Below are positions 20,398 through 38,510 of a stretch of DNA of 64,000 nt, one piece after another. Where the stretch lies: contig JAQUMH010000002.1 in assembly GCA_028718185.1 (NCBI GenBank), forward strand, positions 4,088 to 68,087. Reading direction: 5' to 3'. Each line of letters begins with the position of its first letter. The stretch's first letter is position 1. The notes beneath the pieces are model-generated. The model ran no database searches, had not been told where the DNA came from, and saw only the letters and a list, made by a program, of their open reading frames with translations. A program made the position numbers and the translations under genes. Source of the DNA: Elusimicrobiota bacterium (GTDB taxonomy: Bacteria > Elusimicrobiota > UBA8919).

Positions 20398-23300
20398 TCA
20401 TTTTATCAGTCCTACCTTCCCGGTCTTCTTCCTGCCTGTAGCGTCTCTTATCTGATAAATATATACTCCTCTGGCTACTTTGTCTCCATCGTCATTCTTG
20501 CCATCCCACTCAAGCCAGCCAAGATTACCAAAGTCTGCCTCTTTGAGTTCCCTTGCCAATTCACCGGATACAGTGTATATCTTCATTTCACTGTTTATAG
20601 GCAGGTTTATTACCTTTAACTTACCACCTACCGCCATGTTAGGTTTATATGGGTTAGGATATACTTTCACATTACTCAGGTCTGTCGCAAGATAACTGCC
20701 CAATATACGATATGTTGTGAATCGTTTCACATTCGCTGTTATTGTCTTGTTTAGCTTGTCTACTATATGTACTCCAGGCACCAATTCCCACTCCCTACCG
20801 TTCCATGAATATATCCTTAATCCTTCTTCCTTTAATTCACCTATATCCACTAACGTGTATGGGATTGTTATGCTTATCGGCTTTGTAAATATATCTTCTT
20901 CCAATACCGATGTCTTATTTGTAAATGACAATCTTCCAAAATCATAACTTATGGGTTTCACGGTATCTACATATCTCGCTGCGTTTCTTACTACCGCCGG
21001 CGTCTTTGTCTTTATCACTGCCAAATTCCTGGTTTCTGTCAATACGTTTTCGCTCACTATTATCTTTAGTTTGTTTACTCCTTTTATCATTCCGCCATTG
21101 TTTCCTATTGGTTTTGCAAGATACATATCGTTGATATTTGTCAGGGTAGGCAACATGCTGTCTCCGGTAACTGATACTGTCTCTATTTCACTATTGAATG
21201 GTATTGATATCTCCCTTTCTCCTGTATCTTCTTTTGTCAGTATTGCGTCTGCAACGTTCAATATACCGGTTTTTGAGTTCTTTGTTGATAGTGTTAGTGT
21301 CCCGCTGTAATCCGTTGTGGGGTTATTGTCATTTGTATTGTATACTTGTGCTTTGAATTTCAAGCTTGATACTGTTATAGCTGGGTCTAATGACGCTGTA
21401 TCTAATGTCGGTCCGTCTTCGTAGTAATATGACTTTAAGGTGTTACTGTACTTTATAATAGGTTTTGGTGGTGTAGCGAGTCCTGTTACTGTCTCAAGAC
21501 GAACATCATCTATGTAATATGTATCGCCTGCAGTCGCATATGGCGTAAACCAGAACCGGAAACGTCCATCGGTTACCGGAGCTGTAAAGCCTGTGGTGAT
21601 AAATTCGGTAGTAAATGTCTGCCAGCTTGTGCCAAGGTTCGCTGTGTAATTCAAACCGTAGTCTGTGTATGGGGTCCCATGCTTTAACAAGTGTACTGTT
21701 ACGGCATGTCTGGTTGGCGAATAGGCTGTAAATATCAATCTATATCTGGTATTAGGGTTAAGGCAAATTCCTGTCTGGTATAATTGGATGTTACCATTGG
21801 CAGCGGTTATTGTACATTTGGCGGATTTGGCTCCTTCAAAACCTGGTGTTGTGCTAATAAATGTGCCTCCGCCACCTGCATAATATGCCCAGGAATCTGT
21901 ACCTGATTCAAAGCCGGCATTTATAACATGATTTGTGCCGGAAGAAGTGCTTAGTGTGCTGAACGTATAATTTTCGCTTGTTGCTATATTGCCGGAACCA
22001 TCTTTACTTGTTACATGGTAATAATATGTAGTACCTAACGTTAAGCCGGTTATGTTAACGCTATGGCTTGTTACTTTTGTTGTATCTGATGTCGTTGAAA
22101 TACCATATAGTGTTGTTGTACTGTACTCTACCTGTGAATCGCTTGGTTCATTGGTGAGCCAATTTATTACTGCGGAATTCCAGGTTATATTGCTGGATGT
22201 AACGCTCGTTATTATGGGCGGGGTTGTATCAGGTGGGACTGTTTCAAGGTGTATATCGTCTACGTAATACACATCACCTGCTGCTGCATATGGGGCATAC
22301 CACAACATTAAACGGGCATCAGTAACAACAGACGAAAATCCGGTTGTTACAAATTCGGTGGAATATGTCTGCCAGCTTGTGGTCAGGTTCGCCAAATAAT
22401 TATCCAAACCATAATTGGTATATGGGGTGCCGTGTTTGAACACGCGCACTGTCATATCATGTCCTGTATTGGAATAGGCTGTAAATGTTAATTTATATCT
22501 GGTATTCGGATTAAGGCAAATTCCTGTCTGGTATAACTGGATGTTACCGGTGGATTTGGTTATTGTACATCTGGCGGACTTGCTACCTTCAAAACCGGGT
22601 GATGTGGTAACAAACGAGCCTGCTTCTTCGGTATAAAAAGCCCAGGATGTTGTGCCTGATTCAAAACTATGATTACTTATGAAATTTATGTCGCTTGTAA
22701 ACGTATTGTCTTCGCTTGTTGAAAAATTACCTGATTCATCTCTGCTGCTTACCCTGTAATGATATACTGTACCAGGCATTAATCCTGTTATATTAGCACT
22801 GTGATTTGTTAACTTAACTGTACTTAACACTGTTGAGTTTCCATATGATGTTGTTAGTCCGTACTCCACCTGCGAATCGCTTGGTTCATTGGTTATCCAA
22901 TTTACTAATGCGGAATTCCAGGTTATATCGCAGGATGTAACGCTCACTATTATTGGCGGGGTTGTATCAGGTGGAACTGTCTCAAGATGTACATCGTCTA
23001 CGTAATACACATCTCCTGCTACTGCATATGGCGCATACCAGAACATTAAACGGGCATCAGTAACTACAGACGAAAATCCGGTTGTTACAAATTCGGTGGA
23101 AAATGTTTGCCAGGTTGTGGTCAGGTTCGCCAAATAATTACTTAATCCGTAGTTGGTATATGGGGTGCCGTGCTTGAACACGTGCAATGTCATATCACGG
23201 CCTGTATTGGAATATGCTGTAAATGTTAATCTATATCTGGTATTCGGATTAAGAACGATATCTTTTTGGTATAACTGGAGGTTACCGGTGGATTTGATTA

Positions 23301-26300
23301 TTGTACATCTGGCAGACTTGCTACCATCAAAACCAGGTGATGTGGTAACAAACGAGCCTGCTTCTTCCGTATAAAATGTCCAGGATGATGTGCCTAATTC
23401 AAAACTATGATTACTTATGAAATTTATGTCGCTTGTAAACGAATTATCTTCACTTGTTGCAAGATTACCTGCTGTATCTTTACTCTTTACCCTATAATGA
23501 TATACCGTACCTGATGTTAATCCGGTTATATTAACGCTATGATTTGTTACCTTAACTGTATCTAACACTGATGAGTTACCATATGATGTCGTTAGTCCGT
23601 ACTCCACCTGTGAATCACTTGGTTCATTGGTTAACCAATTTATTACTGCGGAATTCCAAGTTATATCGCTGGATGCAACATTCGTCATTATCGGCGGGGT
23701 TGTATCACTCATCACTTCAAACTCTGTTGTTGCAGATGAAGCATTACCTGCTAAATCAATAATATTTACTTTGCAAGTGTATGTACCGGAAGAAACATTT
23801 TGCCCAATTGTATTTTTGCCATCCCACTCACAACTATAATTTCCAGCAGGTACAGCCAAATTACTTATAAGGGCTCTTGTTAGTACATCATTATTGTAAA
23901 TTTCAACATTTATTACCGATTCTTTAGATAGAACAAATGAAATTTCTGATTTAATCCTTGCACCATCTGGTGATATTACTGCAGCAGATACCGATAAATT
24001 AGTTATCTGTGGTAAAGTGGTATCTCTTGTTATTGATGTTATTTTTGATTTAGGGCTATCAAACGGAATATTATTAAACCACCTCGTCGTTTTTGCAAAT
24101 ATTGGATTTGCTCCTTCTGAAAGCGAAATTTCTGCTGAAAATCTGCCATTACTATCTGCTTTTACTGTCTTCAAACTAGCACCGTCATTATATACTGTTA
24201 CATCTGCAACAGCTTCTACTACGCCTGTAATTGTTATATATTGCTGGTTTGTTATTGTTGATATATTTGCGTCAAATTCAGGTATTGGCACTTGTGGGAT
24301 TATTAAATACTGCGAAAATCCTACTACTTCACAACTTACTTCAAAAATATCGTTCTTCCCTGATGCATCTTTTTTCCACCCTAAACTTGTTAGTGTTGTT
24401 GGTTTTACTTTGCCATTACTGTCGACATGATATGCAGTGAGTTTTCCTATATCTACATTTGTAACTTCTTCAGGTAAAAATCGCACTGTTAAAACAGCAG
24501 GAGCAACTAATTTACCATTTCCATCTTTATTAAATTGTATATCTTTTGGTTCCATATCAAATAACGCACCAAGAGGCAGAGGCATACCTGTATCAACAAT
24601 AATATCTGTATCTGACAATTTTACTGGTGTTATGCTTACAGTGGTTGGTTGTAATAATGAATCAGTGTAAAATTCTAAATATGCTTTGTTCCATGGTGCT
24701 GATACATATTTATGTTCGCCAGGAAATACTTGTTTACCAACATATACTGTTTGCTCTATTTCTTTTACACCATTACCGGCAAATACATATAACTTTATTT
24801 TGTACTCTCCATTAAGTCCTGATACATCCCAAAATGATAGTGTATTATTTGAAACAGGTTGAGTGGATATTACCGGTATGGTTTTCAATATTGTATCGCC
24901 TGTCTTTTGATAGAACATTGAATATCCCTTAAAATCACTCCCAAACGCACTACCTTTTATCTCAACAAATCTTTTTGGTGCCGCTTCATCTGTTGATATT
25001 TTTACGGTAAAGTCGTCATTAATATCATTACTATCTGTGTTTGATGCTTTGGTAAGTTTCTTATCCACTACCAAATCATTACACATAGTGCCGTCTGGAT
25101 ATTGCAATTTTATGTCCCATTGTTTTTGAGTATCATAATTATCTGCATCAATCCACACATAAGGATTGTCTATAGTAGTTCCATTTTGTTTCCAAAAAGT
25201 ATATTTGTTTTTAATTTCATCGGGGTTATTCATATTTACCAAAGGATATGCTGCAGAAATCGTTATTGGTCTATATCGGTCAGCAACTGTTGGTTCAAAA
25301 GGTCCTTCTATTACAAAATCTGCTTGAAGATTATTACCACTATTATTAAATTCATTATTTTTACTAATGATCTTATGTTCTGGCAATCCTTGGTCATCTG
25401 TTGTCATATCCCATGATTCTTTCTCGTTGGTTGTCGCTTTTAATTCTAAAAGACCTCTTTCTTCTACTATTGTTTTAAGGACTTTAGGATTTGTTTGAGT
25501 CACAAATGTATAAGGAGATGATGACGGAATATAGTCATACGGTATTCTTATTTCTTCAATTGAATTGTAAGTATCGTGCCCATTATAACAAGTATTATTT
25601 ACAGTTACTGAAGGTTCGTAATTTGCATTTATTTTTACTTCACGTAAAACAGGAGTTTTACTTCCATCATTTGTAGATAAAGTTGCTTTCCATCTGATGT
25701 ATTTTCTTGGTGTTGAGTAAATTGGCTGACCAGGGGTTGCTGTTCTTTCAGATTCCCAACTATATCCATCATCACTCGTTTGAGTCGTATAAGTGATATT
25801 CGTTCCTGAAGGTTTGTATTCAGATACCTCAAAATTTCTCCAAGACGATGGTGCTGTTTTACAATCGTGTGCTTGAGAAATAAGTGTTCCAACTAAACCA
25901 AAATTCTGAGTGACATTGTATATTACTGGAGTTGTTTGTAAATCACGAGTAGCAAAATCTGCCCTCCATTTAAAATACCGTTTCTGACCAAGTGATGGCA
26001 CTACTCCATTTTCCACTATTGGGGCGGCTTCCCAGTTAATATTTTCTCCAGAACTATTGTAGCTTGCAATCCTATATGTTATGTGAGCCCCTCCTAAATA
26101 ACCTACATTATTTTCATCACTCGTTTGAAATAAGTTCCAAATTGGTGAATAAGAATATGTATCATGTTCTTGTGAAATAAACACACCTGTATTTTCATAT
26201 CGTTTTTGGTATCCCTCTATACTATTAAGAAATAAATATGCACCATGATTTGAATTGTGGGGCTGCACAAGGATCTTAAAATATGGTGCATAAAATGGTG

Positions 26301-29300
26301 TGGGAACTTCTTCATCAAATGAAATATTTATACTAGAACCATGAGAAACTACCTGACTCCAATACTTGTAAGTTGTCCATGGGCCATTTGAACTATTGCC
26401 GTATTGCAAGTAGATATTAGCACCACAATTATTTCCATCTTTATGCCATACAGCAACACTTCCTACTACCCGTAATCTATAAAATTTATAATGCCATGGA
26501 TATATAGGTGGTACACCTTGAGGAGGTCCTGAACGACCACAAACAAACGCCCAAGTGTTTCCATACCCAGCCCATGCAGGCCAGACAAGAGTACTATCAT
26601 TTCTATCATTTGCATTTGTCCAAGATGAACTAGGAGCAAGCGGATAATTACCCGAAATATCATCGTATTGTTCATGTATTGCATCCACAACATATTGACT
26701 AAACTGAACTTTATTATCAGCAATTATAAGAGTAGGTGTTTTTTGCCCATTATAAAAAGTAGAAATATCATCATATTTTTTGGTACATATCTTAACATTA
26801 CCCGACTCTGAATTTAGGTCAATATTACTTATGCCTCCTTGTCCAAAATCTTGTTGTGATGTTTGTATCCACGACTGTGCAGCATGTGTTTGCACAGTAG
26901 CAGAAAATGATTGCGGTGAATAATATTCCCCCTTTTTTACAGTTGCGGACCAGTTGAAATTAGAAGACCCTTGATTAACTGAATATGGTGCTGGTGAAGT
27001 AATTTCTGCTAACCCACTTCCTGGTCCTCCAATAACTGCAATTGAAACTGACGCGGAACCTTTTGTCTGGTCATCTACTGCAATAACATCTATCTTGCAA
27101 GTATATAACCCTTCTACAATACTACTCCAGACTGTTGTATACTCTGTCAACCCAGATGTAAATTCATTATCAACCATCTTTACAAGATTACCTACTGTAT
27201 CATAAATAGTAATATATACTGTAGCTGCTTTTGTCAGTTCATATGTAATTTGGACTGGTTCATTTAACAAGACATCTGATTTGTCTGATTCAAATTTTGT
27301 AATCTTTAGTGGTTCTGTTATGGTTACATTTACATTTACACTAACAGATTTCTTATCCATCCCGAGACCGTCTATATCTACTGCTGTTAATTGTATCCTG
27401 TAAATCCCATTTTGCACATACTGTTTTCTAAAATCCTTACCATCCCACTGTATTGTTTCACCAGCAGTTTTATTAAAATATTCTGAATGTAAAATTACCG
27501 GACCAAATGTGTTGACATCAACCATCTTAAAAATATCCAGTACCACATTTGACTTTTTGCCGGTATTCTGCATTAAAGTATATGAGATATTCAATTTATC
27601 ATTTATTGTGGTTATATTAAACACCTGGTCAGAAATAGGTGCTGTGATATTAAGTATCGGCTTGTCAGTTTCTGGAATTGTATTGTCCACTTTTACCGAT
27701 ACTGTTATTGCACTGTAGTTTGATGGCATAGCACTATCCTGTGCAACCAATAAAATTGTATAGGTACCATTTGGTAAAGATGATACATCCCAATACGCTA
27801 ATGTTGAATTTAGTATTGCTCTGTATGATGCATTAGAATTTGGATAATTTACATCATTTGGACTTTGATTTGACACAGGTACTGGTATCGATTTCCATAC
27901 ATTCATATCTGGACTTATGTAATTGTCTGGTGTCGCATTACTATAAGTAGCATACCATACTTTGTAACACAAAAAGTCAATATTATCATTTACTACTGGA
28001 TCTATTGCTATACCAACTATTTCTACTTGATTACCAACTATGCCATTAAATACTGGTGACACTATTTGGGCAGGTATCTGATTTTTTATTACATTTACCG
28101 TCTCTTCTGCTTTATTTCCTACTTCATCTGTTGTCTTTATTTTTATAACATAACTTCCATCACTTGCAAAACTGTTATCTTGTTTCTTTCCATCCCATGT
28201 ATAGGAATATAACACATCTTTTTGTTTTACCTCGGATATTGGACTTCGGACTATCTGTCCTAATATATCTTCAACAGCTACCTCTACTGTTGCATTATCA
28301 CTTATCTTATAATATGCTGTTACAGTATCATTTTTAAGTTCTGGATTAAATATTTGTATATTTGTGTAAAGTGTGGTTACAAATGACGGTGTTCTATCTA
28401 TCTTAAATGTTTGCAATATTGGAATCGTATTGCCTATATTTCCAGATTCATCTGTTGCTTTTAATCCTAATGTATACTCTCCATCAGACGCAGTATTCCC
28501 CAACGCATCTGTCCCATCCCAAGCATATAGAAGATTTTGTGTTATATTCGGTGTAACTACAAAATCTGTTACTTTTGTAAACAATCTTGTTCCTGATGTA
28601 AAAGTAAAACTCACCTTTGCTGATGGTGAAAATCTATCAAATATATCAAATGATATATCTACACTTTTATCATTTTTAGTAAAAATATTATGGGAATAAG
28701 CACCAGGATTTATATATATACTGCCATTTGATACCTGTGGTGGTGTTATGTCTACAATTATATCGCCTTCATATACCTTTAAGTTCTCTGCCTCATCAAC
28801 TGCTGTTATTTTACATTTGTAAATCCCTTCTGCTACTACTACCCCATTGGTATTTTTACCATCCCATATATCTAAATTTGCCCCTATATTCTTTGAAATA
28901 CTATCAATAAGTGTTCTTACTAAATTATTCTGTAAGTCATATATTTTTATTGTTGTTTTAATCACTGTTGAGAAATTATCCGATAAAGTATAATCTATCG
29001 TTGTTGCCTCTTTTATTCCATCACCATTAGGTGAGAATGCAAGACAGGAATAACTCGTTATATCTGGTGGAGTTATATCGTATCTCAACGTAACTGTTGC
29101 ATTTTTAGTGTAGTCAGTATTTCCAGCATTATCTTTAAGCCAGATATATAATATATTATTCCCTTCAACAACAGAGAAATTGGAAGTAAATGTTTGAGTA
29201 TTAGGAATATAATTTGCAGGTTCCGTATTTAACTTATAATATGCTCCTGCTATTCCTGATAAATCAGAAGGAGTTGACCATGATATGGTAAATTGTGTCT

Positions 29301-32300
29301 GGTTTGTCCAACCGGATGGTGAAACAGATAAAGATTGTGGTTTATCTGGCGGGGTCGTATCTACTATTATTCCATCACTGCTAACCGGGGTCTCGGAACC
29401 AGCTCCATTTTTCGCTTTCACTGTAAAATAATAAATACCGTCATCTAAAGGTGAATCAAATGTCCTAGTTATATTACTAAGTGTTCCTGTTGATGTTAAA
29501 GCGATAATATTATACCATCCAGTATTCGGATATTGTGATGTTCCTATTGCATATTGATATTCCACAATTCCAGAGATATCCTCGGTAAAACTCCAATTAC
29601 AAGAAAGTTGTGTGTTATTGTTTGTATATAACCCATCATTAATTGATACACACATTGGCGAAGTTGTATCAATCATTACACTGCCTCCTGTTAGCCATGC
29701 ACTCCATCTACCTGCCCCATTTTGAGCACGAACTTTTGCAAAATATGATTGACCATGAATAAGACCATCTACAGTATAATTTGTTTGACTATTTGGAACA
29801 TCTGCTTGTGCTATTAGGCTATCTGTGATGCTATTATAAATTGCAATATTAAAATTAGATATACCACTTTCCATATCGGTAGCAAAATCGCCTTCCCATG
29901 TAAATGTTACTGTTGTAGAAGAGGAATAGGCACCTCCTGCAAATCTTGGTGCCTTTGCAGGACCACTAGGCATTTCTGGGTCTGTTGTATCAAGATAAAT
30001 TTCATCCTTTATTTCTACTATAGAAATATTTCCTGCTTTATCTTTATATCTCGCCCATACCGTTTTATTACCTGCTCCTGCTGTCAACCACCAAGGAGAA
30101 TAAATATGTGTATACTCAATCCAATCTCCAATAAAAATTATTCCATCATAAGAAAACTGCATCCAACCAACTTCACTATTATCTGAAACTGTGGAATACA
30201 AACTAACTTGCTGACTACCTGTAAAATTTTCTAACGGTGCAAATGTATCTCTAATAAGTAAACTTCCAATCGGTGGGGTAACATCAATCATAAACTCTTT
30301 ACCAATAGTTGGTGTAACATTTGTAGCAATATTCTCTCCAATATCTTTTCCACTTATGGTAACGGAAACCATTCCTTCAACACCAGGACCAGAAACAATA
30401 TTTACTTCACCTTTATACACATTCCCTGATACAAGTATGGTTGCTACTTCTGTTTTATCATTCACAGTACCAGGAGCATCTATACTGAATGTTGGGTTGG
30501 CAGATAATTGTTCACTTGCAGTTATTTTTAGATAAATTGTTTGTGCTTTAGTTATTGGCTTTCCTGTATAAGTTGCTAATGGTTGTGTAAGATTTGAATC
30601 TGCAAAATATTCTACTGTGAAATTTGGTGGTATCATTGCTATTAAAGAGTAATCTAAATTATTAGCAAAAGCGTCTGTATTGCTTGGTATAACAATAACT
30701 TTGGAACAAGTTGTATCAAAATTGGAAATGGATACGGTATTACCAGTTTTATTTAAATCATTTTGTTCTTCTATAGTGCCATCCATTTTAACTTTCAACA
30801 CTTTGCCACCCCATAATGGTGTAACTACTGATGAATCAAAATTAAGGAGAAGCGTTTGTGGAGTTGGTTTATCAGGTGCTGGACGAAATTCAAAATAGTG
30901 ACTTGCAAGATGCATAACAGTATTAACTCCTGATGGGTATTGGTATTTAGCAGAAGTATCTAAAACTGTTATCTTCGGATAAGAATTACCTTCAATATAA
31001 TATTTAGAAGCATCATAATTCCAAACAGTAAATGTCTTAAATTCATTAGATAAACTTGTTCCATGACCTGATATTAATTCGCTATCAATTGCCGACAAAG
31101 AATCGGTAGTTTTACATATATCCCAAATCTGGCGAATTATATCTTTCTCATTAAATCTCTCGGAAAAATATTTTGCAAAAATACAGGAACCGTATTCATT
31201 CCAATCATTTATATAATCCAATGATTGAGTAGAATTTGCAAACCAAGATGGCTTTCCAGCAAATCCTTTAAGATATTGTAAATAGTCATTTACATTAGGA
31301 TAAATTTCATCTTCCATCCAGACAGATGTAGCTTCATTCCACCAATAATTATCATCTCTTGGATTATAACTACATTTAACAGCATGAAAAAACTCATGGG
31401 CGGAGGTAATCTGCATAGCATCTGTACCATGTGTATAAAATTTATCACCAATATAATCATTGTCTACCTGAATTATAGAACCTAAAATTGGATGTTTATA
31501 TGCAGTGCTTCCATATGCGCCATTTCCTAAATTTAAAATATAAACAGGTAATTTATTTTCAATTACAAAATATTCTGATGGTGGAGATTCATAACCATAT
31601 GAACCAGGTTTCACTATTTGGTTCCAACTATATTCAAAATACTGTCCAAAATTATATACATAATCGGGAATACCATTGTGTGATTGCCAACCTGCTGAAT
31701 TGACCTGATTAACATCAGGATTTGAAATTGTATATGCTCTAAAATGAAACTTAAAATTAGTGGTTTTATAAACGCCGTAAGTGTAATATACATCTTTTAT
31801 ATTGCTAACATTACCAGCAACATCCCACACTTGTATCATTATATGATTTATTCCTTGGCGAAGATTAATATTATCAAACGATTTAGTATCATTTGTGCCA
31901 TTTACGTATTGTTCTTTTGCTGGTCCTATTTCTGGTATTACCACTATTTTTTCCAATTGAATCGTATCTGACACAGTAACATTTATTGTTATTGTTTCAT
32001 TTTCTCCTTGATTTTGGTCAGGAGGATTAAATGAGACCACGGTAGGTTTAGTTTCATCAAGTATAATGGAAGTGGAAACAAAGGATGATATATTACCTGC
32101 ATAATCTTTAACTCTAAAATATATTGTTTTTGCACCTTCGCCAGTAGAATTAATATAATAAGATTTTGATATAGAATAATCTTCCCAAGTTGATGGCCAA
32201 TTATTAGAATCCTCAGTAAATTGCATTTTCGCCACACCGGAAGTTGCATCACTTGCTAATAACGCTAATGTAATAATTCTATTATTAGTAAATCCCGTAC

Positions 32301-32976
32301 CAGGAGAAGTAATTAAAACAGATAATCCACTCGGAACTGTTTTGTCTATCTTTACAGTTTGTGAATGAGTGGCTTCGCCATTACCAGTATTATCATATGA
32401 CCAATAGTAAACCGTATGCTCTCCATTAGCCCCAATTGCGAATGGCGTAGTGTAAGTTTGAGCAGACAAGTCACCATCAACCAGGTAAAGCGTTTTATTA
32501 ACTCCAGATGTTACATCATAAGCATTTAACGTTACCGTAACATCCGATTTATACCAACCATTTTCGCCGAATGTCCCTGATAAATTACAAGTTGTTGATG
32601 GCGAATATGTATCAAGGGTTATGCTATCATTTGTACTTCCTATATCAGTTGGGGAATAAGTAGTTACAAACACTTTCATATATACCGTTTTATTGCCATC
32701 TCCACTGCCTCCACCGTAAGCAGTCAAGTCCCAGCTGTATTTTATAGAACTTATTCCTTCCCAAGGGGACCATGACGAATTGTTGTTACTGAATATCATC
32801 CATTGAGCATCGGACGGTATATTACCGATGGTTAGCGTTGTGTATTTATAATTTGTATAATCAGCACCCGAGTTGATGTTCAAAGTTAAACCTATTACTC
32901 TTTGAGCGAAAGAAAATAAAAATACAAAACCTATAAAACATCTTAGTAAATAATAAAATTTAAATTTTTTATACAT
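20398..32976 (-). CDS. giant (4192 aa) secreted multidomain cell-surface protein with a T9SS-type C-terminal sorting domain; putative adhesin/S-layer-like protein with an embedded zincin motif
   Basis: N-terminal signal peptide (MYKKFKFYYLLRCFIGFVFLFSFAQRV). HEFFH...NEAT...E zincin-like motif near aa 525 (nt about 31384-31398). Many Ig-like, FlgD-Ig-like and fibronectin-III domains. Three near-identical about 245-aa repeats of FN3 plus a CBM4/9-like domain (nt about 21300-23720). C-terminal about 85 aa (VYPNPYKPN...GVYIYQIRDATGRKKTGKVGLIK) matches the Por_Secre_tail (TIGR04183) pattern. Confidence 0.7.
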   Translation of the reverse strand: MYKKFKFYYLLRCFIGFVFLFSFAQRVIGLTLNINSGADYTNYKYTTLTIGNIPSDAQWMIFSNNNSSWSPWEGISSIKYSWDLTAYGGGSGDGNKTVYMKVFVTTYSPTDIGSTNDSITLDTYSPSTTCNLSGTFGENGWYKSDVTVTLNAYDVTSGVNKTLYLVDGDLSAQTYTTPFAIGANGEHTVYYWSYDNTGNGEATHSQTVKIDKTVPSGLSVLITSPGTGFTNNRIITLALLASDATSGVAKMQFTEDSNNWPSTWEDYSISKSYYINSTGEGAKTIYFRVKDYAGNISSFVSTSIILDETKPTVVSFNPPDQNQGENETITINVTVSDTIQLEKIVVIPEIGPAKEQYVNGTNDTKSFDNINLRQGINHIMIQVWDVAGNVSNIKDVYYTYGVYKTTNFKFHFRAYTISNPDVNQVNSAGWQSHNGIPDYVYNFGQYFEYSWNQIVKPGSYGYESPPSEYFVIENKLPVYILNLGNGAYGSTAYKHPILGSIIQVDNDYIGDKFYTHGTDAMQITSAHEFFHAVKCSYNPRDDNYWWNEATSVWMEDEIYPNVNDYLQYLKGFAGKPSWFANSTQSLDYINDWNEYGSCIFAKYFSERFNEKDIIRQIWDICKTTDSLSAIDSELISGHGTSLSNEFKTFTVWNYDASKYYIEGNSYPKITVLDTSAKYQYPSGVNTVMHLASHYFEFRPAPDKPTPQTLLLNFDSSVVTPLWGGKVLKVKMDGTIEEQNDLNKTGNTVSISNFDTTCSKVIVIPSNTDAFANNLDYSLIAMIPPNFTVEYFADSNLTQPLATYTGKPITKAQTIYLKITASEQLSANPTFSIDAPGTVNDKTEVATILVSGNVYKGEVNIVSGPGVEGMVSVTISGKDIGENIATNVTPTIGKEFMIDVTPPIGSLLIRDTFAPLENFTGSQQVSLYSTVSDNSEVGWMQFSYDGIIFIGDWIEYTHIYSPWWLTAGAGNKTVWARYKDKAGNISIVEIKDEIYLDTTDPEMPSGPAKAPRFAGGAYSSSTTVTFTWEGDFATDMESGISNFNIAIYNSITDSLIAQADVPNSQTNYTVDGLIHGQSYFAKVRAQNGAGRWSAWLTGGSVMIDTTSPMCVSINDGLYTNNNTQLSCNWSFTEDISGIVEYQYAIGTSQYPNTGWYNIIALTSTGTLSNITRTFDSPLDDGIYYFTVKAKNGAGSETPVSSDGIIVDTTPPDKPQSLSVSPSGWTNQTQFTISWSTPSDLSGIAGAYYKLNTEPANYIPNTQTFTSNFSVVEGNNILYIWLKDNAGNTDYTKNATVTLRYDITPPDITSYSCLAFSPNGDGIKEATTIDYTLSDNFSTVIKTTIKIYDLQNNLVRTLIDSISKNIGANLDIWDGKNTNGVVVAEGIYKCKITAVDEAENLKVYEGDIIVDITPPQVSNGSIYINPGAYSHNIFTKNDKSVDISFDIFDRFSPSAKVSFTFTSGTRLFTKVTDFVVTPNITQNLLYAWDGTDALGNTASDGEYTLGLKATDESGNIGNTIPILQTFKIDRTPSFVTTLYTNIQIFNPELKNDTVTAYYKISDNATVEVAVEDILGQIVRSPISEVKQKDVLYSYTWDGKKQDNSFASDGSYVIKIKTTDEVGNKAEETVNVIKNQIPAQIVSPVFNGIVGNQVEIVGIAIDPVVNDNIDFLCYKVWYATYSNATPDNYISPDMNVWKSIPVPVSNQSPNDVNYPNSNASYRAILNSTLAYWDVSSLPNGTYTILLVAQDSAMPSNYSAITVSVKVDNTIPETDKPILNITAPISDQVFNITTINDKLNISYTLMQNTGKKSNVVLDIFKMVDVNTFGPVILHSEYFNKTAGETIQWDGKDFRKQYVQNGIYRIQLTAVDIDGLGMDKKSVSVNVNVTITEPLKITKFESDKSDVLLNEPVQITYELTKAATVYITIYDTVGNLVKMVDNEFTSGLTEYTTVWSSIVEGLYTCKIDVIAVDDQTKGSASVSIAVIGGPGSGLAEITSPAPYSVNQGSSNFNWSATVKKGEYYSPQSFSATVQTHAAQSWIQTSQQDFGQGGISNIDLNSESGNVKICTKKYDDISTFYNGQKTPTLIIADNKVQFSQYVVDAIHEQYDDISGNYPLAPSSSWTNANDRNDSTLVWPAWAGYGNTWAFVCGRSGPPQGVPPIYPWHYKFYRLRVVGSVAVWHKDGNNCGANIYLQYGNSSNGPWTTYKYWSQVVSHGSSINISFDEEVPTPFYAPYFKILVQPHNSNHGAYLFLNSIEGYQKRYENTGVFISQEHDTYSYSPIWNLFQTSDENNVGYLGGAHITYRIASYNSSGENINWEAAPIVENGVVPSLGQKRYFKWRADFATRDLQTTPVIYNVTQNFGLVGTLISQAHDCKTAPSSWRNFEVSEYKPSGTNITYTTQTSDDGYSWESERTATPGQPIYSTPRKYIRWKATLSTNDGSKTPVLREVKINANYEPSVTVNNTCYNGHDTYNSIEEIRIPYDYIPSSSPYTFVTQTNPKVLKTIVEERGLLELKATTNEKESWDMTTDDQGLPEHKIISKNNEFNNSGNNLQADFVIEGPFEPTVADRYRPITISAAYPLVNMNNPDEIKNKYTFWKQNGTTIDNPYVWIDADNYDTQKQWDIKLQYPDGTMCNDLVVDKKLTKASNTDSNDINDDFTVKISTDEAAPKRFVEIKGSAFGSDFKGYSMFYQKTGDTILKTIPVISTQPVSNNTLSFWDVSGLNGEYKIKLYVFAGNGVKEIEQTVYVGKQVFPGEHKYVSAPWNKAYLEFYTDSLLQPTTVSITPVKLSDTDIIVDTGMPLPLGALFDMEPKDIQFNKDGNGKLVAPAVLTVRFLPEEVTNVDIGKLTAYHVDSNGKVKPTTLTSLGWKKDASGKNDIFEVSCEVVGFSQYLIIPQVPIPEFDANISTITNQQYITITGVVEAVADVTVYNDGASLKTVKADSNGRFSAEISLSEGANPIFAKTTRWFNNIPFDSPKSKITSITRDTTLPQITNLSVSAAVISPDGARIKSEISFVLSKESVINVEIYNNDVLTRALISNLAVPAGNYSCEWDGKNTIGQNVSSGTYTCKVNIIDLAGNASSATTEFEVMSDTTPPIMTNVASSDITWNSAVINWLTNEPSDSQVEYGLTTSYGNSSVLDTVKVTNHSVNITGLTSGTVYHYRVKSKDTAGNLATSEDNSFTSDINFISNHSFELGTSSWTFYTEEAGSFVTTSPGFDGSKSARCTIIKSTGNLQLYQKDIVLNPNTRYRLTFTAYSNTGRDMTLHVFKHGTPYTNYGLSNYLANLTTTWQTFSTEFVTTGFSSVVTDARLMFWYAPYAVAGDVYYVDDVHLETVPPDTTPPIIVSVTSCDITWNSALVNWITNEPSDSQVEYGLTTSYGNSTVLSTVKLTNHSANITGLMPGTVYHYRVSSRDESGNFSTSEDNTFTSDINFISNHSFESGTTSWAFYTEEAGSFVTTSPGFEGSKSARCTITKSTGNIQLYQTGICLNPNTRYKLTFTAYSNTGHDMTVRVFKHGTPYTNYGLDNYLANLTTSWQTYSTEFVTTGFSSVVTDARLMLWYAPYAAAGDVYYVDDIHLETVPPDTTPPIITSVTSSNITWNSAVINWLTNEPSDSQVEYSTTTLYGISTTSDTTKVTSHSVNITGLTLGTTYYYHVTSKDGSGNIATSENYTFSTLSTSSGTNHVINAGFESGTDSWAYYAGGGGTFISTTPGFEGAKSAKCTITAANGNIQLYQTGICLNPNTRYRLIFTAYSPTRHAVTVHLLKHGTPYTDYGLNYTANLGTSWQTFTTEFITTGFTAPVTDGRFRFWFTPYATAGDTYYIDDVRLETVTGLATPPKPIIKYSNTLKSYYYEDGPTLDTASLDPAITVSSLKFKAQVYNTNDNNPTTDYSGTLTLSTKNSKTGILNVADAILTKEDTGEREISIPFNSEIETVSVTGDSMLPTLTNINDMYLAKPIGNNGGMIKGVNKLKIIVSENVLTETRNLAVIKTKTPAVVRNAARYVDTVKPISYDFGRLSFTNKTSVLEEDIFTKPISITIPYTLVDIGELKEEGLRIYSWNGREWELVPGVHIVDKLNKTITANVKRFTTYRILGSYLATDLSNVKVYPNPYKPNMAVGGKLKVINLPINSEMKIYTVSGELARELKEADFGNLGWLEWDGKNDDGDKVARGVYIYQIRDATGRKKTGKVGLIK
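21300..23720 (-). repeat. intragenic triple tandem DNA repeat (about 740-bp unit) encoding FN3+CBM-like modules of the giant protein
   Basis: Near-identical segments recur with about 740-bp period, e.g. gtctcaag(a/g)tg(t/a)acatcgtctacgtaatacacatc.cctgct.ctgcatatgg at about 21490, 22245 and 22980. Confidence 0.7.
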
Positions 32977-32981
32977 AAAAA

Positions 32982-34172
32982 CTATTGTTTTTTCTTAATT
33001 AAAATAATATTTATTTCCTTTGTGCTGGTATTCCCATAACAATCAGTGGCAACTACTTTAACTTTATTTACTCCTTCTTTTTGAAGATATGGTTTAATAT
33101 CATCCAAAGAATATACTTTTTTTCTGAAGCTAGTAGTAAAATTATATGGGGACCCAAAACTTATACGTTTGTTATTAGAATATGTGCATAATAATGTTGG
33201 ACTACTATCTCCATATATAAACTTTATTGAACCATATATCTTGCCTTTCACATATTCTTCATATGGTATCTCATCAAACTTTTGCCCATCTTCTACACCT
33301 TCTATCTCTATTGTGGGTGGGGTAATGTCTGTTTTGGCTTTCGGTGGATAAACAATCCAAACACTATCAAAATCCTCTTGCATCGCAAACTTACTTCCTT
33401 CATTCTCTGCACCAATACTAACATTCCAGATTCCTGTTGATGGTAATACCCCCGTCTCACTGAAATTATATATATTTTGTCCAGGAGGACCATATAATTC
33501 TACAAGTCCAGGTTTATCTTTAAACTGTTCTTTAAATTCAAGATAATATTTTCTACCTCGTTCTTTTCCATACATCTTCTCTTGATATATTTCTTCCGGT
33601 AATATATGTTCCACTTTAGATAATTTTATCTTTTGTTTTTCTGTTATACTTACATCTCCAATTTTTATCCAAGCATTTGTTACATTATAAACCTCTGGCG
33701 TTTCTATTGTGCCTTTTATTACTATATTAGACGAATCTACCACTTCACTATCTTTTGGTTCAATTATCTTAACAATAGAACTTTGCTCGCTATAAAAATT
33801 TAATCTATTTTTCCATGTTATTATTTTTATTTTCTTCTTGTTCACCTCACTTAACTTATTCCATATATTTTCTAATTCTCGTTGAATATCTAATGTAGAA
33901 TTCTTTTTCTGATACAATCGCATATTAGGCTTCTTATATTTTTGAGGTAAAGAATCAGGATCATTTATGCAGTAGAACTTATACATAAATGCCGTCTCTT
34001 CATCTATAATTCCTGCATGCCGATCATCTTCCACCAAATTCCACGACCTTTTTTCACCAGGGTTAGAAACCGCTTCCCTGGCAAACATTATGCCGATTCC
34101 TCCAATCAAATCAACAAATAAACAAATTAACACCCACTTGTTAAACAATTTTCTTATCAACATTTTTTTCAC
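32982..34172 (-). CDS. hypothetical membrane-anchored protein, co-operonic with the giant protein
   Basis: 396 aa. N-terminal signal-anchor helix (WVLICLFVDLIGGIGIMF). The stop lies 6 nt from the giant-gene start. The C-terminus resembles a small Ig-like beta domain. No recognisable catalytic motif. Confidence 0.4.
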   Translation of the reverse strand: MKKMLIRKLFNKWVLICLFVDLIGGIGIMFAREAVSNPGEKRSWNLVEDDRHAGIIDEETAFMYKFYCINDPDSLPQKYKKPNMRLYQKKNSTLDIQRELENIWNKLSEVNKKKIKIITWKNRLNFYSEQSSIVKIIEPKDSEVVDSSNIVIKGTIETPEVYNVTNAWIKIGDVSITEKQKIKLSKVEHILPEEIYQEKMYGKERGRKYYLEFKEQFKDKPGLVELYGPPGQNIYNFSETGVLPSTGIWNVSIGAENEGSKFAMQEDFDSVWIVYPPKAKTDITPPTIEIEGVEDGQKFDEIPYEEYVKGKIYGSIKFIYGDSSPTLLCTYSNNKRISFGSPYNFTTSFRKKVYSLDDIKPYLQKEGVNKVKVVATDCYGNTSTKEINIILIKKKQ

Positions 34173-34260
34173 CTCTATTTTATCTAAAATATTATTTTAT
34201 TTTTCCTAAATCTGTTTTAGTTTTATCACCAAGTTTTACTGGTTTTGTCTCTTCAAATAA

Positions 34261-35262
34261 TCACTCGCTTCCAAAACTATAACCAATTGATACTCTTTGG
34301 TTTGGGTTAAGTGTTTCAACCAAACCAATCCCATAATCAACTTTTAATCCTTTCATTTGGAAACCTGCGCCAAGAGTAACCTTATCAATATCATATCCTA
34401 CTTTATAGCCAAATCGCAGAAATACTGTTTCTTTGAAACTATACTCAATACCAATGTTTTCCCTTATATTACTTTCATTTGGTTTAACTGTGTCAATGGC
34501 AATCAAAAAACTGTGATTTTGTAATACCGTTTTATTATATGCTATTCCTAACCTTATGTTCATAGGAAGTGCGTCTCCCTGTTCAATGTACTTCAGTTTT
34601 GTCCCTACATTTTGAACAGCAAGTCCTGTTGAAAGTCCATCAACGGTTGTATAATATAAAATACCAAAATCCACTGCATATGCAGTCCCTGAATATGTTT
34701 CTACAAGTTTGGATGAAAGATACTTTGCAGTTAACCCTAATGAAAAATTATTGAAAATTTCTTTGCCATAACCTATTGTTCCAACTATATCCTGCTGTGC
34801 TTTAACATTCCTTGAAGTACCATCAAGATTATTCCATTCAAAATTACCACCATCATAATAAAGAAAACTTGCTCCAAAACTGCCTATTCCATTTGATGGC
34901 GTTCCTACCCATCCAACTAAACCGTAATTTTCATCTACTCTGCCTTTTAAATACATACTCGCTATTTCATTACCTTCTATATTTACCAAACCTGCCGGGT
35001 TATAATAAAGTGCATTTGTGTCATCACATACAGCAACAAACGCTTCACCCATACCTACAGTTCTGGCACTTACTGTCTGATTTAAAATCCTTGCACCGGA
35101 GGTACCAGAACCAGCATAAAGACAGGAAGTAGGGAGTAGGAAGTAGGAAGTGGTAAAGGCAATAAATAAAACCAGAGATTGCCACGAGCCAATTGACATC
35201 GGCTCTCGCAATGACTTCCTTTCTAAAATTTCTCTAAACATAACACACATCCTAAACATCAA
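34261..35262 (-). CDS. outer-membrane beta-barrel protein, PorP/SprF-like (type IX secretion cargo-attachment family); true start probably internal
   Basis: 333 aa. Signal peptide, then LYYNPAGLV (NPAxaG-type motif near the N-terminus), alternating amphipathic beta-strand pattern, aromatic C-terminus. The size fits PorP/SprF. It lies between two CTD-bearing cargo genes. The 5' end overlaps a MITE fragment and ggaagtagg direct repeats, so MSIGSW... may be the true start. Confidence 0.45.
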   Translation of the reverse strand: MMFRMCVMFREILERKSLREPMSIGSWQSLVLFIAFTTSYFLLPTSCLYAGSGTSGARILNQTVSARTVGMGEAFVAVCDDTNALYYNPAGLVNIEGNEIASMYLKGRVDENYGLVGWVGTPSNGIGSFGASFLYYDGGNFEWNNLDGTSRNVKAQQDIVGTIGYGKEIFNNFSLGLTAKYLSSKLVETYSGTAYAVDFGILYYTTVDGLSTGLAVQNVGTKLKYIEQGDALPMNIRLGIAYNKTVLQNHSFLIAIDTVKPNESNIRENIGIEYSFKETVFLRFGYKVGYDIDKVTLGAGFQMKGLKVDYGIGLVETLNPNQRVSIGYSFGSE

Positions 35263-35285
35263 CGTTTATCAATTTTGCTTGGCAC

Positions 35286-38200
35286 TCATTTCACAACGCA
35301 AATCTTTTTTGTTTGTTTGAATCCTGGTCCTTCTATATGAATATAATAAATTCCTGAAGCAACTACTTCTTCTTCACTATTTTTACCATACCAATTTTCT
35401 GAATATGTTCCCGCAACCACATCCTTATCAACAAGTGTTTTTATAAATACACCGTCTATCGTGTATAGTTTTATTGTTATATGTCCTGCCTGTGGTACAC
35501 TGTAATAAACTTTACAAATATCACCTTTTATTGGATTAATCACATTATTTACAGGCAATATATGGTCTTGTTCAAGTTTTGCCTGATGCGAAGAATACAG
35601 ATTAACCAAATAAATATCACCACCATAATTACAAACCACTTTTGTACCGTCGAGTGAAAATCTTGAGTTATCATACCCAAAAACATAAGATGCAGGAGTA
35701 AGTTGCTGCCTTTCAGAACCATCAGGATTGGAAATAACAATTTTACGATTCAATAAGGATTCATCAACATATGTAATTTTTGAACCATACCAGTCAATAC
35801 CCCATTTAGTGAGTTGATAAACCATACCAGTTACTGTATCAATTACTCTATCATAATTAACAACTTTTGTAGCATCGGGAGACCATCCGATATCCCATAT
35901 GAACCATATATTACCATCTTTTGTGATTTGTGTGTTTGTTCCATTCTCGTATATCCACAAATCACCATTATAATAATAGGCAACTTTAGAACCAGAAGGT
36001 GAGTAAATCGGATAAGACCCAATCGCAATTTTTTGTTTACTTGTACCATCACTGTTTATAATGTATGTTCCTGAAACACCGCTTATTGTCCCAAAGAAAA
36101 CAACTTTTGTTCCATCTGATGAGAATGACGGTACACTATAGGAAACAAAATCAGGAAAAGAAACAAGTTTGATAAGCGAAGAAAAGTTACTAATAACAAG
36201 TTCAGTTCCTAAAATGAATGTAATTTTTTTATTATCCTGTGACCATCCGATATAATATGTTGGACTGGCGCTATCAACAGAATAAACCGAATTCCCATAA
36301 ATATCTTTCACTTTTACATAATATCTACCATTATAAAGATAAGAATACGCAACTTTAGTGCCATCGGGCGATAATACTTCAGATAAAAACGATGTTGTGC
36401 TAGTTTCAATCAGTGTCTCATTTTTCCCATTCACATCAATAGACTTTAATTCTTCTCTGTCTTCATAATTAGCATTATAAATAATTTTTTGTCCAGCATC
36501 AACCAAATTAAAGTAATAAGATAAGGTATTATTTGTAAGATTTTTCTTATTAGTAGCATCTGTTTTTATCGTATATATATTTTGTTGACTGCCACAACCT
36601 ATACGATCGTTGGTAGGTGAGAATGCAAAAAAGTCATAATCTTCAACAATTTTTATATTTCCGGTTCCATCACTGTTTATGATATAACATGAATTGGAAT
36701 CAGCGTAATAATTATAACCGAGATAGCAAACCTTTGAACCATCAGGTGACCATTTAAATTTATAGTAGTAGTATCCAGCGGTTGTTGTTAACTGTATATT
36801 TCCGGTTCCATCAGGATTAATTGTGTAAAGGTAATCACTTGGAGAGGAACCATAACAGTAAACAATTTTATTAGTAGCTGACCAATCAGGGAAACTTCCA
36901 TCACATAAATAATTTGGCGCACCACCTGTTGACGTTATAATATTTATATCACCTGAAAAATAATATACAATTTTATTACTATCAGGTGCCCATGAATAAC
37001 CCGCCCAACACTCTGCAAGATACATATACCCTGTTCCATTAATATTTATTACTGAAAGCCTATTACTATCTTTAATAAATGCTATTTTTGTGCCATCAGG
37101 TGATACTTTAATATCTTCCATTGTTGATGTAGATGTATATATTACAGTTTTTCCTGAACCGTCATTATTCATAGTACATATAGAATAATTTAAAACGGTA
37201 TCATTTGCTCTGACATATATAATTTTGCTCTGCCCGAAAATAAACTTTGCACCCAACTCAACATATTCATCATTCGTAATTTGTTTTTTATTAGAACCAT
37301 CTGCCGACATAATGTAAAGGTCAACACCATTTTCATTATTCAGTGAATAGACAATTCCTGCTGATGACCAGTCAAAAGCAGTATATTCGGCACGGCTTCC
37401 GGTTAATCTTGTTGTCCAACCTGCAGTTCCTTTTGCTGTGCTTTCAATCGCAATCCCTGTAAAATTCTGGTCTGTTTGATTCGCTGAAAGATTAGAATAA
37501 CTTTTACTTTCCGGTGAGAATGTATAATTTGTCTTTGTCGGTGTAACAGTAAAATTCCCTCCTTCAGAAATACCTGTGAATTTATAATATCCTGTTGCTG
37601 TTGTAGTCGAAAATCTTAAATCTGCACCAGTTAAACACACCAGAACACCATTGATTGCTGTCCCTGAATTATCTTTAACATAACCCGCTATTGCAAAAAG
37701 TTGAGGGGTAGAAACATCGGGTGCATCAATAGAATATGTGGCTCCAATTGCTAATGTATTCCATTTATCATATGCTTGAAAATAATATATATAATCAGTT
37801 CCGGAGGATAAATTTGTAGAATATGTAAAGAGTTTGCCATCAGAATATGAGGTATCGTTGACATCAACTTCGTTCATTATATAGGTTTTTGTTCCTTGCC
37901 AACTCGCACCTAATGCTGTGGATATTACAACTCTTGGATAATATGATTCTGGAGCATCATCATCGGCATCTGTATATTTTACTCTACATGTGAATATTGT
38001 TGAAGGACTGCCTGTTTCAGGATTTAAGCCATCAGAAGTATAATTTGTCTCACCTGTCCACGAAAGCACAGGTGCTGTATTGGTAGAACGATAATTAAGA
38101 TACCCTGACCAACTATTATAAGAAAATTTAAGTTTCAGGTAATATATCTGTGATGATGTTGCATTATAATTAAATGGATCACCAGATGAACTACTTGCTA

Positions 38201-38510
38201 CTTGATTTGTTCCTGCAGAATCGCTGTAGAGGTAAGCATTGCAATTATTGGAATAATTGGTAAAAGAAAAATAATATATTGTGCCTGCTGTCATTGATAT
38301 CTTAAACCAATCTGTTGTATCTGTTGCAGATAAATCGTGTGGTCCATCTGATTGGGTAGTTGCGGTAGGTGTTATAACTGTTCCATTTACTGCATTATCA
38401 TCTGTCGGATCCCATGCATCTGCATAAAGATAGGTAAAGAATATAAATTGAACTAAAAAAAGAAATAAAATGTATTTTATGCAACAGGGAAACTTTAATC
38501 TAATCTTCAT
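35286..38510 (-). CDS. secreted multi-PD40 (TolB-like WD40-like beta-propeller repeat) protein with CarboxypepD_reg-like domain and T9SS-type C-terminal sorting domain
   Basis: 1074 aa with a signal peptide. Repeated SPDG(T/S)K(V/I)(A/C)(F/Y) PD40 signatures (at least 8). IAGYVKDNSGTAINGVLV... matches the CarboxypepD_reg fold. The C-terminal 80 aa (KVYYSVPQAGHITIKLYTIDG...SGIYYIHIEGPGFKQTKKICVVK) match the Por_Secre_tail pattern. Confidence 0.7.
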   Translation of the reverse strand: MKIRLKFPCCIKYILFLFLVQFIFFTYLYADAWDPTDDNAVNGTVITPTATTQSDGPHDLSATDTTDWFKISMTAGTIYYFSFTNYSNNCNAYLYSDSAGTNQVASSSSGDPFNYNATSSQIYYLKLKFSYNSWSGYLNYRSTNTAPVLSWTGETNYTSDGLNPETGSPSTIFTCRVKYTDADDDAPESYYPRVVISTALGASWQGTKTYIMNEVDVNDTSYSDGKLFTYSTNLSSGTDYIYYFQAYDKWNTLAIGATYSIDAPDVSTPQLFAIAGYVKDNSGTAINGVLVCLTGADLRFSTTTATGYYKFTGISEGGNFTVTPTKTNYTFSPESKSYSNLSANQTDQNFTGIAIESTAKGTAGWTTRLTGSRAEYTAFDWSSAGIVYSLNNENGVDLYIMSADGSNKKQITNDEYVELGAKFIFGQSKIIYVRANDTVLNYSICTMNNDGSGKTVIYTSTSTMEDIKVSPDGTKIAFIKDSNRLSVININGTGYMYLAECWAGYSWAPDSNKIVYYFSGDINIITSTGGAPNYLCDGSFPDWSATNKIVYCYGSSPSDYLYTINPDGTGNIQLTTTAGYYYYKFKWSPDGSKVCYLGYNYYADSNSCYIINSDGTGNIKIVEDYDFFAFSPTNDRIGCGSQQNIYTIKTDATNKKNLTNNTLSYYFNLVDAGQKIIYNANYEDREELKSIDVNGKNETLIETSTTSFLSEVLSPDGTKVAYSYLYNGRYYVKVKDIYGNSVYSVDSASPTYYIGWSQDNKKITFILGTELVISNFSSLIKLVSFPDFVSYSVPSFSSDGTKVVFFGTISGVSGTYIINSDGTSKQKIAIGSYPIYSPSGSKVAYYYNGDLWIYENGTNTQITKDGNIWFIWDIGWSPDATKVVNYDRVIDTVTGMVYQLTKWGIDWYGSKITYVDESLLNRKIVISNPDGSERQQLTPASYVFGYDNSRFSLDGTKVVCNYGGDIYLVNLYSSHQAKLEQDHILPVNNVINPIKGDICKVYYSVPQAGHITIKLYTIDGVFIKTLVDKDVVAGTYSENWYGKNSEEEVVASGIYYIHIEGPGFKQTKKICVVK

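Follow-up and report, generated by a model that had tools for sequence, protein, structure and literature searches.

A candidate type IX secretion-like cargo and carrier operon in an Elusimicrobiota bacterium

How two large proteins encoded in the same operon might be brought to the cell surface, and how they might be held there, is the question raised by a four-gene locus of an Elusimicrobiota bacterium. The locus lies on contig JAQUMH010000002.1 in a stretch of 64 kb (64,000 nucleotides, in the following called the window) and comprises genes for a propeller protein of 1074 amino acids (aa), a 333-aa outer-membrane barrel, a 396-aa protein and a giant protein of 4192 aa (genes 1 to 4; Table 1). 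An earlier note, made from the sequence alone, interpreted the locus as a system of the SprB/SprF kind, in which a giant surface protein is attached by means of a PorP/SprF-like protein encoded next to it. According to the comparisons described here, it is rather probable that the operon encodes a different arrangement, a cargo-plus-carrier module resembling a secretion system of type IX (T9SS).

The barrel, the tails and the proteins that carry them

The 333-aa protein is a PorV/PorQ-family outer-membrane barrel. It matched the model of this family (NF033709) with 176.4 bits (cutoff 90), whereby residues 54-330 covered the full model, and PF19572 with 37 bits; the annotation by the NCBI Prokaryotic Genome Annotation Pipeline (PGAP) likewise is PorV/PorQ family. 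A profile of 12 homologues retrieved PorV of Flavobacterium johnsoniae from the PDB (6H3I_F, E=2.8e-27). The AlphaFold2 model (predicted local distance difference test, pLDDT, 90.2) has a FadL-type fold with 14 strands, and its best fold matches were the PorV chains 8GL6_F and 6H3I_F (template modelling score, TM, 0.72-0.73), followed by TodX/FadL with about 0.55. The outer-membrane barrel that the earlier note had placed between the two large proteins is thus retained as a member of a T9SS family, but the family is PorV/PorQ and not PorP/SprF, for which the models TIGR03519 and PF11751 gave no match in the Pfam and NCBIfam scans (E ≤ 0.01). The motif YYNPAG, which had been taken as typical of PorP/SprF, is indeed present, and N-P-A-G is invariant across 33 homologues; judged by this conservation, it is the N-terminal NPA-type motif of the FadL/PorV-like family and no PorP/SprF signature.

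The start codon of the barrel gene is uncertain. The open reading frame (ORF) of 333 aa begins with TTG, the NCBI version starts at M 35241 (326 aa), and a start at M 35199, which is the probable beginning of the signal peptide, yields 312 aa. In relatives, many PorV-like barrels possess C-terminal extensions that look like LysM, OmpA, SH3 or TPR domains (Table 1), which suggests a tethering to peptidoglycan, while the barrel of the window ends without such an extension. Natural fusions of PorV-like and FlgD_ig domains (P0089, P0091, L005, L026) were considered as a 'Rosetta stone' for the binding of C-terminal domains and were rejected, because their extensions consist of periplasmic FlgD-Ig domains plus OmpA, LysM, SH3 or TPR tethers.

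Both large proteins terminate in homologous C-terminal domains (CTDs) of about 95 aa. With the type A sorting model TIGR04183 (cutoff 23), the CTD of gene 1 scored 15.9 bits in the context of the full-length protein and 23.0 bits alone, and the CTD of gene 4 scored 17.3 and 27.0 bits, respectively. The former also matched FlgD_ig (24 bits, cutoff 27) and a local CTD profile (E=5e-31), and the latter PF18962 (18.1 bits, cutoff 27) as well as, within the models of PorZ (55.9 bits) and PorU (38.2 bits), the portion that represents the CTD. The type B model TIGR04131 matched neither of them at E ≤ 0.01. In an alignment of 29 homologous tails, every sequence matched TIGR04183 (E ≤ 0.01) and that stretch of the PorZ model which corresponds to its CTD, while 26 matched FlgD_ig, 25 the PorU CTD and 24 PF18962; weak matches to the type B model occurred in six.

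When the CTD profile was compared to solved structures, the best match was the CTD of PorZ (5M11_A, residues 669-758, E=2.9e-9), followed in this order by FlgD, the cargo CTD 8GLK_D and the CTD of PorU, with 8GLJ_D lower in the list; 8GLK_D and 8GLJ_D are cargo CTDs that were solved bound in the SprA-PorV translocon. The domain is always located at the extreme C-terminus and possesses a conserved end of two hydrophobic residues and K/R. From the structure matches, the C-terminal position and the K/R end it follows that the tails belong, as far as homology can tell, to the superfamily of T9SS CTDs and there to a type-A-like, FlgD-Ig-like branch nearest to PorZ and PorU. The T9SS-type tails of the earlier note consequently hold as T9SS-related, homologous domains of about 95 aa, although their scores lie around the TIGR04183 cutoff and those for FlgD_ig are similar. 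The CTDs of PorU and PorZ are not cleaved, and both proteins are held at the surface via PorV and PorQ (PMC5445135, PMC12365241). CTDs of type A use the PorV shuttle (PMC12618676).

The giant protein is, according to its domains, a secreted HExxH metalloprotease of the MXAN_6640 type with three CBM4_9 modules, and not an SprB. Its match to NF045524 (180.9 bits, cutoff 140) includes the HExxH motif in the form of HEFFH at aa 527-531 (nt 31384-31398), which is the zincin motif that had been proposed before. The triplicated modules related to carbohydrate-binding modules (CBM) were recovered as three tandem copies of about 246 aa, each composed of an fn3-like domain (Pur_ac_phosph_N) and CBM_4_9, and these copies are 66-83% identical. 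Tandem Repeats Finder (TRF) found nothing on the giant gene, because the period of 738 nt is above the limit of this program. The Ig-, FN3- and FlgD-like domains of the earlier note are represented by several internal FlgD_ig domains and fn3 matches in Pfam and NCBIfam, beside OmpL47-type domains, and a comparison of the sequence to the PDB yielded only a weak CBM match. SprB repeats were absent from the Pfam and NCBIfam scans, where no SprB model was matched at E ≤ 0.01, so that the designation as SprB-type, also in view of the type-A-like/FlgD-Ig-like tail, had to be given up. Like the putative metalloproteases represented by MXAN_6640, the giant protein has its HExxH domain above the family cutoff, but here the domain is one part of a protein of 4192 aa, which also contains OmpL47-type, FlgD-Ig, fn3 and CBM4_9 domains and ends in a T9SS-like CTD. 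Protease and glycan-binding activities are therefrom predicted for the giant protein.

The 1074-aa protein carries a signal peptide and an N-terminal domain that recurs in many other proteins destined for secretion. A CarboxypepD_reg domain, the PD40/TolB-like beta-propeller repeats expected from the earlier note and the C-terminal sorting domain are its further parts. PorZ is also composed of beta-propellers and a CTD (PMC5445135), and the CTD family of the window is closest to that of PorZ. Nevertheless, the 1074-aa protein was rejected as a PorZ orthologue: its propellers are of the PD40/TolB type, the PorZ model is matched by the CTD only, and the passengers in relatives vary.

The 396-aa protein (gene 3) lacks a CTD, and no Pfam or NCBIfam family was assigned to it. 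In its AlphaFold2 model (pLDDT 75), a hydrophobic helix at the N-terminus is followed by a bundle of helices and a pair of Ig-like domains, and only generic Ig/fn3 folds were found as matches. The ORF starts with GTG, and the database version of 393 aa starts at M4. Homologues are rare: among 1.84 billion representatives they form about nine clusters. The family goes along with the giant gene. In two of the loci in which it occurs (L042 and L045), the 396-like gene immediately precedes a giant-like gene, and the gene that begins 4 nt downstream of it in L042 is 61% identical to the N-terminus of the giant protein. L045, a distant metagenome contig, holds all four families, namely a PorV-like barrel, a PD40 protein with a CTD, the 396-like protein and an MXAN_6640-type protease. 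Because the four families occur together there, and because the 396-like/giant-like pair recurs in L042, the four-gene set is more than a chance assembly. A 492-aa homologue of the 396-aa protein was also detected in GCA_002841695.1 (PHAN01000011.1; L043/L044). Two more PorV-like genes lie in this region, each behind a gene whose product carries a CTD (1811 aa and 184 aa), and the region is interspersed with AAA_14/DUF4143 and toxin-antitoxin genes.

Carrier genes, cargo genes and SprA-like proteins in relatives

A scan of a genome collection with the PorV-like profile yielded 36 loci, mostly from Elusimicrobia and candidate division FCPU426. In these loci PorV-like genes and genes ending in a CTD were marked by local HMMER searches, and three loci of the Fibrobacterota-Chlorobiota-Bacteroidota (FCB) group were left out of the pairing count. 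A CTD gene on the same strand directly adjoins 31 of the 34 PorV-like genes (Elusimicrobiota, FCPU426 and related loci), and in 26 cases it lies directly upstream, which is the same arrangement as that of the gene for the 1074-aa protein. Cargo and carrier are regarded as a conserved pair because of this adjacency. The passengers of the relatives are mutually unrelated (M6 metalloprotease, multihaem cytochrome, subtilase, TolB-like propeller, unknown), and eight of ten partner proteins passed the TIGR04183 cutoff.

The distances among PorV-like proteins correlate with the distances among their partner CTDs (r=0.55; Mantel, 0 of 2000 permutations), in 28 of 33 cases the nearest PorV-like relative is paired with a CTD of the same subtype, and paralogues within a genome are less alike than orthologues from different genomes. 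These comparisons show an inheritance of PorV-like gene and CTD gene as a unit, as far as can be read from the phylogenetic signal, and the distance correlation is compatible with a cognate specificity of carrier and cargo. The genome of the window itself, a metagenome-assembled genome (MAG), contains a second pair on a contig of 970 kb, made up of P0247 (59% identity with the 1074-aa protein) and P0002 (82% identity with the barrel). The pair of propeller-CTD protein and PorV-like barrel was therefore duplicated within this lineage. The same MAG also encodes a protein named 'T9SS type A sorting domain-containing' by PGAP. In an Elusimicrobia genome of UBA5214 (L011:8529-9962), a multihaem c-type cytochrome with decahaem-like CXXCH repeats ends in a T9SS-like CTD, and its gene is located directly upstream of a PorV-like gene; this cytochrome may be displayed on the surface.

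Beside carrier and cargo, relatives possess a homologue of the translocon protein SprA. The model TIGR04189 (SprA/Sov, cutoff 200) matched a protein of 1725 aa in L002 (Elusimicrobia UBA5214; 126.6 bits) and one of 1682 aa in L018 (210 bits). Both genes are located 2-3 kb from PorV-like/CTD pairs, and SprA homologue, PorV homologue and CTD lie within 9 kb of each other in both loci. SprA-like homologues of about 1,700-1,850 aa, annotated as hypothetical or carbohydrate-binding, occur throughout Elusimicrobia and Endomicrobia, and 25 of 25 Elusimicrobiota homologues matched TIGR04189. Their profile matched the structure of SprA (6H3I_A) in three stretches with E=1e-29, and a single sequence did so with E=1.9e-17. 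The gene is always divergent from lptF/lptG and lies upstream of a comF-like gene. No SprA-like protein from the MAG of the window was present among the 120 matches listed; from its relatives we infer that this particular genome carries such a gene. The earlier note had made its T9SS reading depend on core T9SS genes in the genome and on tails other than generic FlgD-Ig domains. In this respect the outcome is mixed: the CTDs are about equal as FlgD_ig and Por_Secre_tail domains, and a SprA/Sov homologue was found in relatives.

A model of export and retention, weighed against its alternatives

The proposed sequence of events starts with the Sec-dependent export of the 1074-aa propeller protein and the 4192-aa HExxH metalloprotease with its glycan-binding modules to the periplasm. 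Each cargo ends in a predicted beta-sandwich sorting domain, which is related to CTDs of type A and closest to those of PorZ and PorU, which stay uncleaved. Between the cargo genes lies the gene of the PorV/PorQ-family barrel with its 14 strands, and this barrel would bind the sorting domains of the cargo, gather the cargo at an SprA-like outer-membrane translocon, as PorV does at SprA/Sov, and then retain it on the cell surface via the CTD, in analogy to PorQ-PorZ and PorV-PorU. The giant protein would then act at the surface as a metalloprotease that also has glycan-binding modules. As a dedicated accessory of this giant protease the 396-aa protein would serve; an escort function, in the periplasm or anchored to a membrane, is a guess. 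Binding of the CTD by the barrel, passage through the SprA-like protein and surface retention are deduced from the known systems and are to be understood as predictions.

A close parallel is provided by the pairs PorQ-PorZ and PorV-PorU in the T9SS attachment complex of Porphyromonas gingivalis, in which a PorV/PorQ-family barrel is likewise combined with a surface protein, with a type-A-like CTD as the contact. Unlike these, the pairs of the window type have adjacent genes, are present several times in one genome and carry varied passengers, and the barrel comes from an Elusimicrobiota host. Another parallel is the SprA-PorV translocon of F. johnsoniae (6H3I, 8GL6), since homologues of SprA and PorV are both present in Elusimicrobiota. 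The SprA of F. johnsoniae, however, comprises 2,403 aa.

Several observations weigh against this model. The barrel stays below both equivalog cutoffs that define PorV and PorQ proper (NF033710, 84 bits, cutoff 250; NF033711, 90.3 bits, cutoff 220), and in full-length context both CTDs of the window fall short of the TIGR04183 cutoff and score similarly as FlgD_ig. Only one of the three displayed scores of Elusimicrobial SprA-like proteins, that of L018, reaches the TIGR04189 cutoff (the others being 126.6 and 161.8 vs 200), and the gene is known from relatives. The SprA-like proteins are also about 25% shorter than SprA, and their genes adjoin lptF/lptG. Because of the scores, the length and these neighbours, their function could differ from that of SprA. 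Genes for an SprA-like protein, for the PorK/L/M/N motor-ring and for the PorU sortase were not found in the 64-kb window. Finally, the 'YPNP' subtype of CTD, to which the tail of the giant protein belongs, pairs with another PorV-like clade in relatives; the barrel of the operon may therefore serve only the 1074-aa protein.

A further-reaching version of the cargo-plus-carrier model is put forward tentatively, as it appears somewhat less probable than its opposite. According to this version, Elusimicrobiota would possess a streamlined type IX-like system with a short, lptFG-linked SprA-like translocon, many cargo-dedicated PorV-like carriers and the CTD as a lasting anchor in the manner of PorZ-PorQ, maybe without PorKLMN or PorU, and the triad of SprA, PorV and CTD would represent the ancestral core of the T9SS.

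The main rival explanation is an anchoring independent of the T9SS, which is considered unlikely but is to be taken seriously. Here, a barrel of the FadL superfamily would only tether proteins with FlgD-Ig-type CTDs, export would take another route (type II secretion or vesicles), and the SprA-like protein would have a task in the envelope or in the handling of lipopolysaccharide (LPS). Several of the points just named agree with this explanation, namely the sub-cutoff scores, the position of the barrel below the PorV/PorQ equivalog cutoffs, and the invariably divergent orientation of the SprA-like gene to lptFG. PorKLMN and PorU were seen neither in the window nor in the few neighbour loci that were scanned. 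Furthermore, homologues of the barrel cross-match the UPF0164 and FadL models of Pfam, the periplasmic LysM/OmpA/SH3 extensions on many relatives are typical of tethers, and two PilT-like ATPase genes are located upstream in the window. On the other side, SprA homologue, PorV homologue and CTD co-occur in the phylum and even within 9 kb in L002 and L018, the CTD profile matches CTDs that were solved in the SprA-PorV translocon, and the predicted fold of the barrel is nearer to PorV than to FadL.

It is improbable that the locus is an ordinary operon of surface proteins, in which the CTDs are merely structural FlgD-Ig domains and the barrel is an unrelated porin or transporter. The FlgD_ig matches, which are as strong as those of Por_Secre_tail, and the several internal FlgD_ig domains of the giant protein would fit this, but the domain with its hydrophobic-hydrophobic-K/R end is always found at the extreme C-terminus and on unrelated passengers, and 31 of 34 PorV-like genes adjoin a CTD gene although such genes make up only 32 of the 301 genes in the non-FCB loci.

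A system of the SprB/SprF type, with a giant gliding-type adhesin attached by its type B CTD via a PorP/SprF-family protein, is very improbable and refuted at the level of family membership: the gene logic is alike, a giant surface protein gene beside an outer-membrane protein gene (PMC12618676, PMC9143113), and six of the 29 related CTDs gave the weak type B matches, but neither a PorP/SprF nor an SprB model was matched at E ≤ 0.01, the barrel is PorV/PorQ by sequence and fold, the CTDs fit the models of type A, PorZ and PorU far better than that of type B, and the giant protein is a predicted metalloprotease with CBM modules. Gliding-motility components were not seen. In F. johnsoniae, cargo genes with type B tails are linked to genes of dedicated PorP/SprF-like carriers (PMC12618676), whereas the carrier of the window is PorV/PorQ and its tails, including that of the giant protein, are type-A-like instead of the type B tail of SprB. 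Since barrel, tail and giant protein all belong to other families, the comparison to SprB/SprF may be upheld as an analogy of logic, a cargo gene beside a carrier gene, and not as homology.

Operon layout, genomic surroundings and significance

The four ORFs of the earlier note were confirmed with their sizes and minus-strand coordinates. The intergenic gaps from gene 1 to gene 4 amount to 23, 88 and 5 nt, so that the range of 6-89 nt given before was off by one. All four products have hydrophobic N-termini resembling signal peptides. A perfect match to TTGACA-16-TATAAT is located about 40 nt upstream of the ATG of gene 1, near the operon-proximal end of the long leader, and the region holds just one further perfect match (20201-20174), which is situated shortly past the stop codon of the giant gene and before the next gene. 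No convincing candidate for a minus-strand terminator was detected between the four genes. Based on the spacing and these pattern matches, it is reasonable to regard the four genes as one operon behind the 734-nt leader, in agreement with the earlier note.

Table 1. Coordinates of the features in the window and, with the locus designation as prefix, in loci of relatives.
Feature	Position	Strand	Details
Gene 1	35286-38510	-	1074 aa, MDD5687132.1, locus tag PHE88_04785
Gene 2	34261-35262	-	333-aa ORF from TTG, MDD5687131.1
Gene 3	32982-34172	-	396 aa
Gene 4	20398-32976	-	4192 aa, MDD5687129.1
CTD of gene 1	35289-35582	-	aa 977-1074, subtype 'NxxNPxKG...WxGxN...ASGIY...KKIxVVK'
CTD of gene 4	20401-20688	-	aa 4097-4192, subtype 'VYPNPYKP...WDGKN...RGVYIY...KTGKVGLIK'
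MXAN_6640-type HExxH metalloprotease domain (predicted)	30883-31686	-	aa 431-698, NF045524
Three tandem modules of about 246 aa	21481-23709	-	aa 3090-3832
Leader/intergenic region 5' of the operon	38511-39244	-	734 nt
Promoter-like site TTGACA-16-TATAAT	38577-38550	-	12/12 matches, pattern match only
Direct repeats of 43 nt, two copies	38746-38788, 38823-38865		hairpin-forming
Extended PorV-like barrels	L005:2146-4110, L012:1064-2734, L013:474-1715, L020:4189-5436, L023:4483-5850, L026:1883-3976		
SprA/Sov-like genes	L002:13568-18745, L018:5751-10799, L038:10001-15397, L039:10001-15274		

The two direct repeats in the leader are 93% identical and lie 77 nt apart. A hairpin of the form CCCGAT...ATCGGG is present in each of them, and they are adjoined by a stretch of higher GC content (about 38870-38960). 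Neither Rfam at the gathering threshold nor a tRNA search gave a match in the window, and the leader matched no Rfam family.

The neighbouring genes in the window are of the housekeeping type (M50 protease, tryptophanyl-tRNA synthetase, ScpA/B, elongation factor G, CCA/poly(A) polymerase, PilT-like ATPases, glycosyltransferases and a Bat-like operon), and no T9SS core gene is among them. Upstream of the operon neighbourhood, the two PilT-like T2SSE ATPase genes (41586-42680 and 42911-43975) and a gene for a cyclic nucleotide monophosphate (cNMP)-binding/GAF protein (40663-41589) are located, for which no link to the operon was found. Four consecutive genes at 50448-58787 encode membrane proteins of the TMEM260-like/PMT_2 O-mannosyltransferase type with C-terminal TPR repeats, and they adjoin the Bat-like cluster (DUF4175, VWA, DUF58, DUF4159).

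With 100% identity, the 333-aa protein corresponds to the entry MDD5687131.1, a 'PorV/PorQ family protein [Elusimicrobia bacterium]' on a MAG contig of 301 kb. The host is therewith outside Bacteroidota, as had been supposed, and belongs to Elusimicrobiota, a phylum outside the FCB group. The T9SS has been described as specific for Bacteroidota or for the FCB group (PMC5445135, PMC7463736, PMC10202324, PMC12398890), and a literature search revealed no paper linking it to Elusimicrobiota. The individual parts are not new, because PGAP already names the barrel and some of the tails in the MAG. Three features appear to be new, namely a SprA homologue throughout the phylum, the multiplication of PorV-like carriers and the near-obligate pairing of carrier and cargo genes.

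These observations show that Elusimicrobiota combine, by homology, an SprA homologue, a PorV homologue and CTD cargo, which are three outer-membrane hallmarks of the T9SS, and that the PorV-like carriers have been multiplied and, to judge from gene order, hard-wired to individual cargo genes. If the streamlined version of the model were true, the known range of the T9SS would be widened beyond the FCB group. If the cargo-plus-carrier model is correct, Elusimicrobiota would offer a simpler system for asking which parts of the T9SS are essential, and the rule of one carrier per cargo, known from type B tails, would be extended to type-A-like tails. In that case, there would also be a practical rule by which the surface proteome of an uncultured phylum, with its proteases, multihaem cytochromes and glycan binders, could be predicted.

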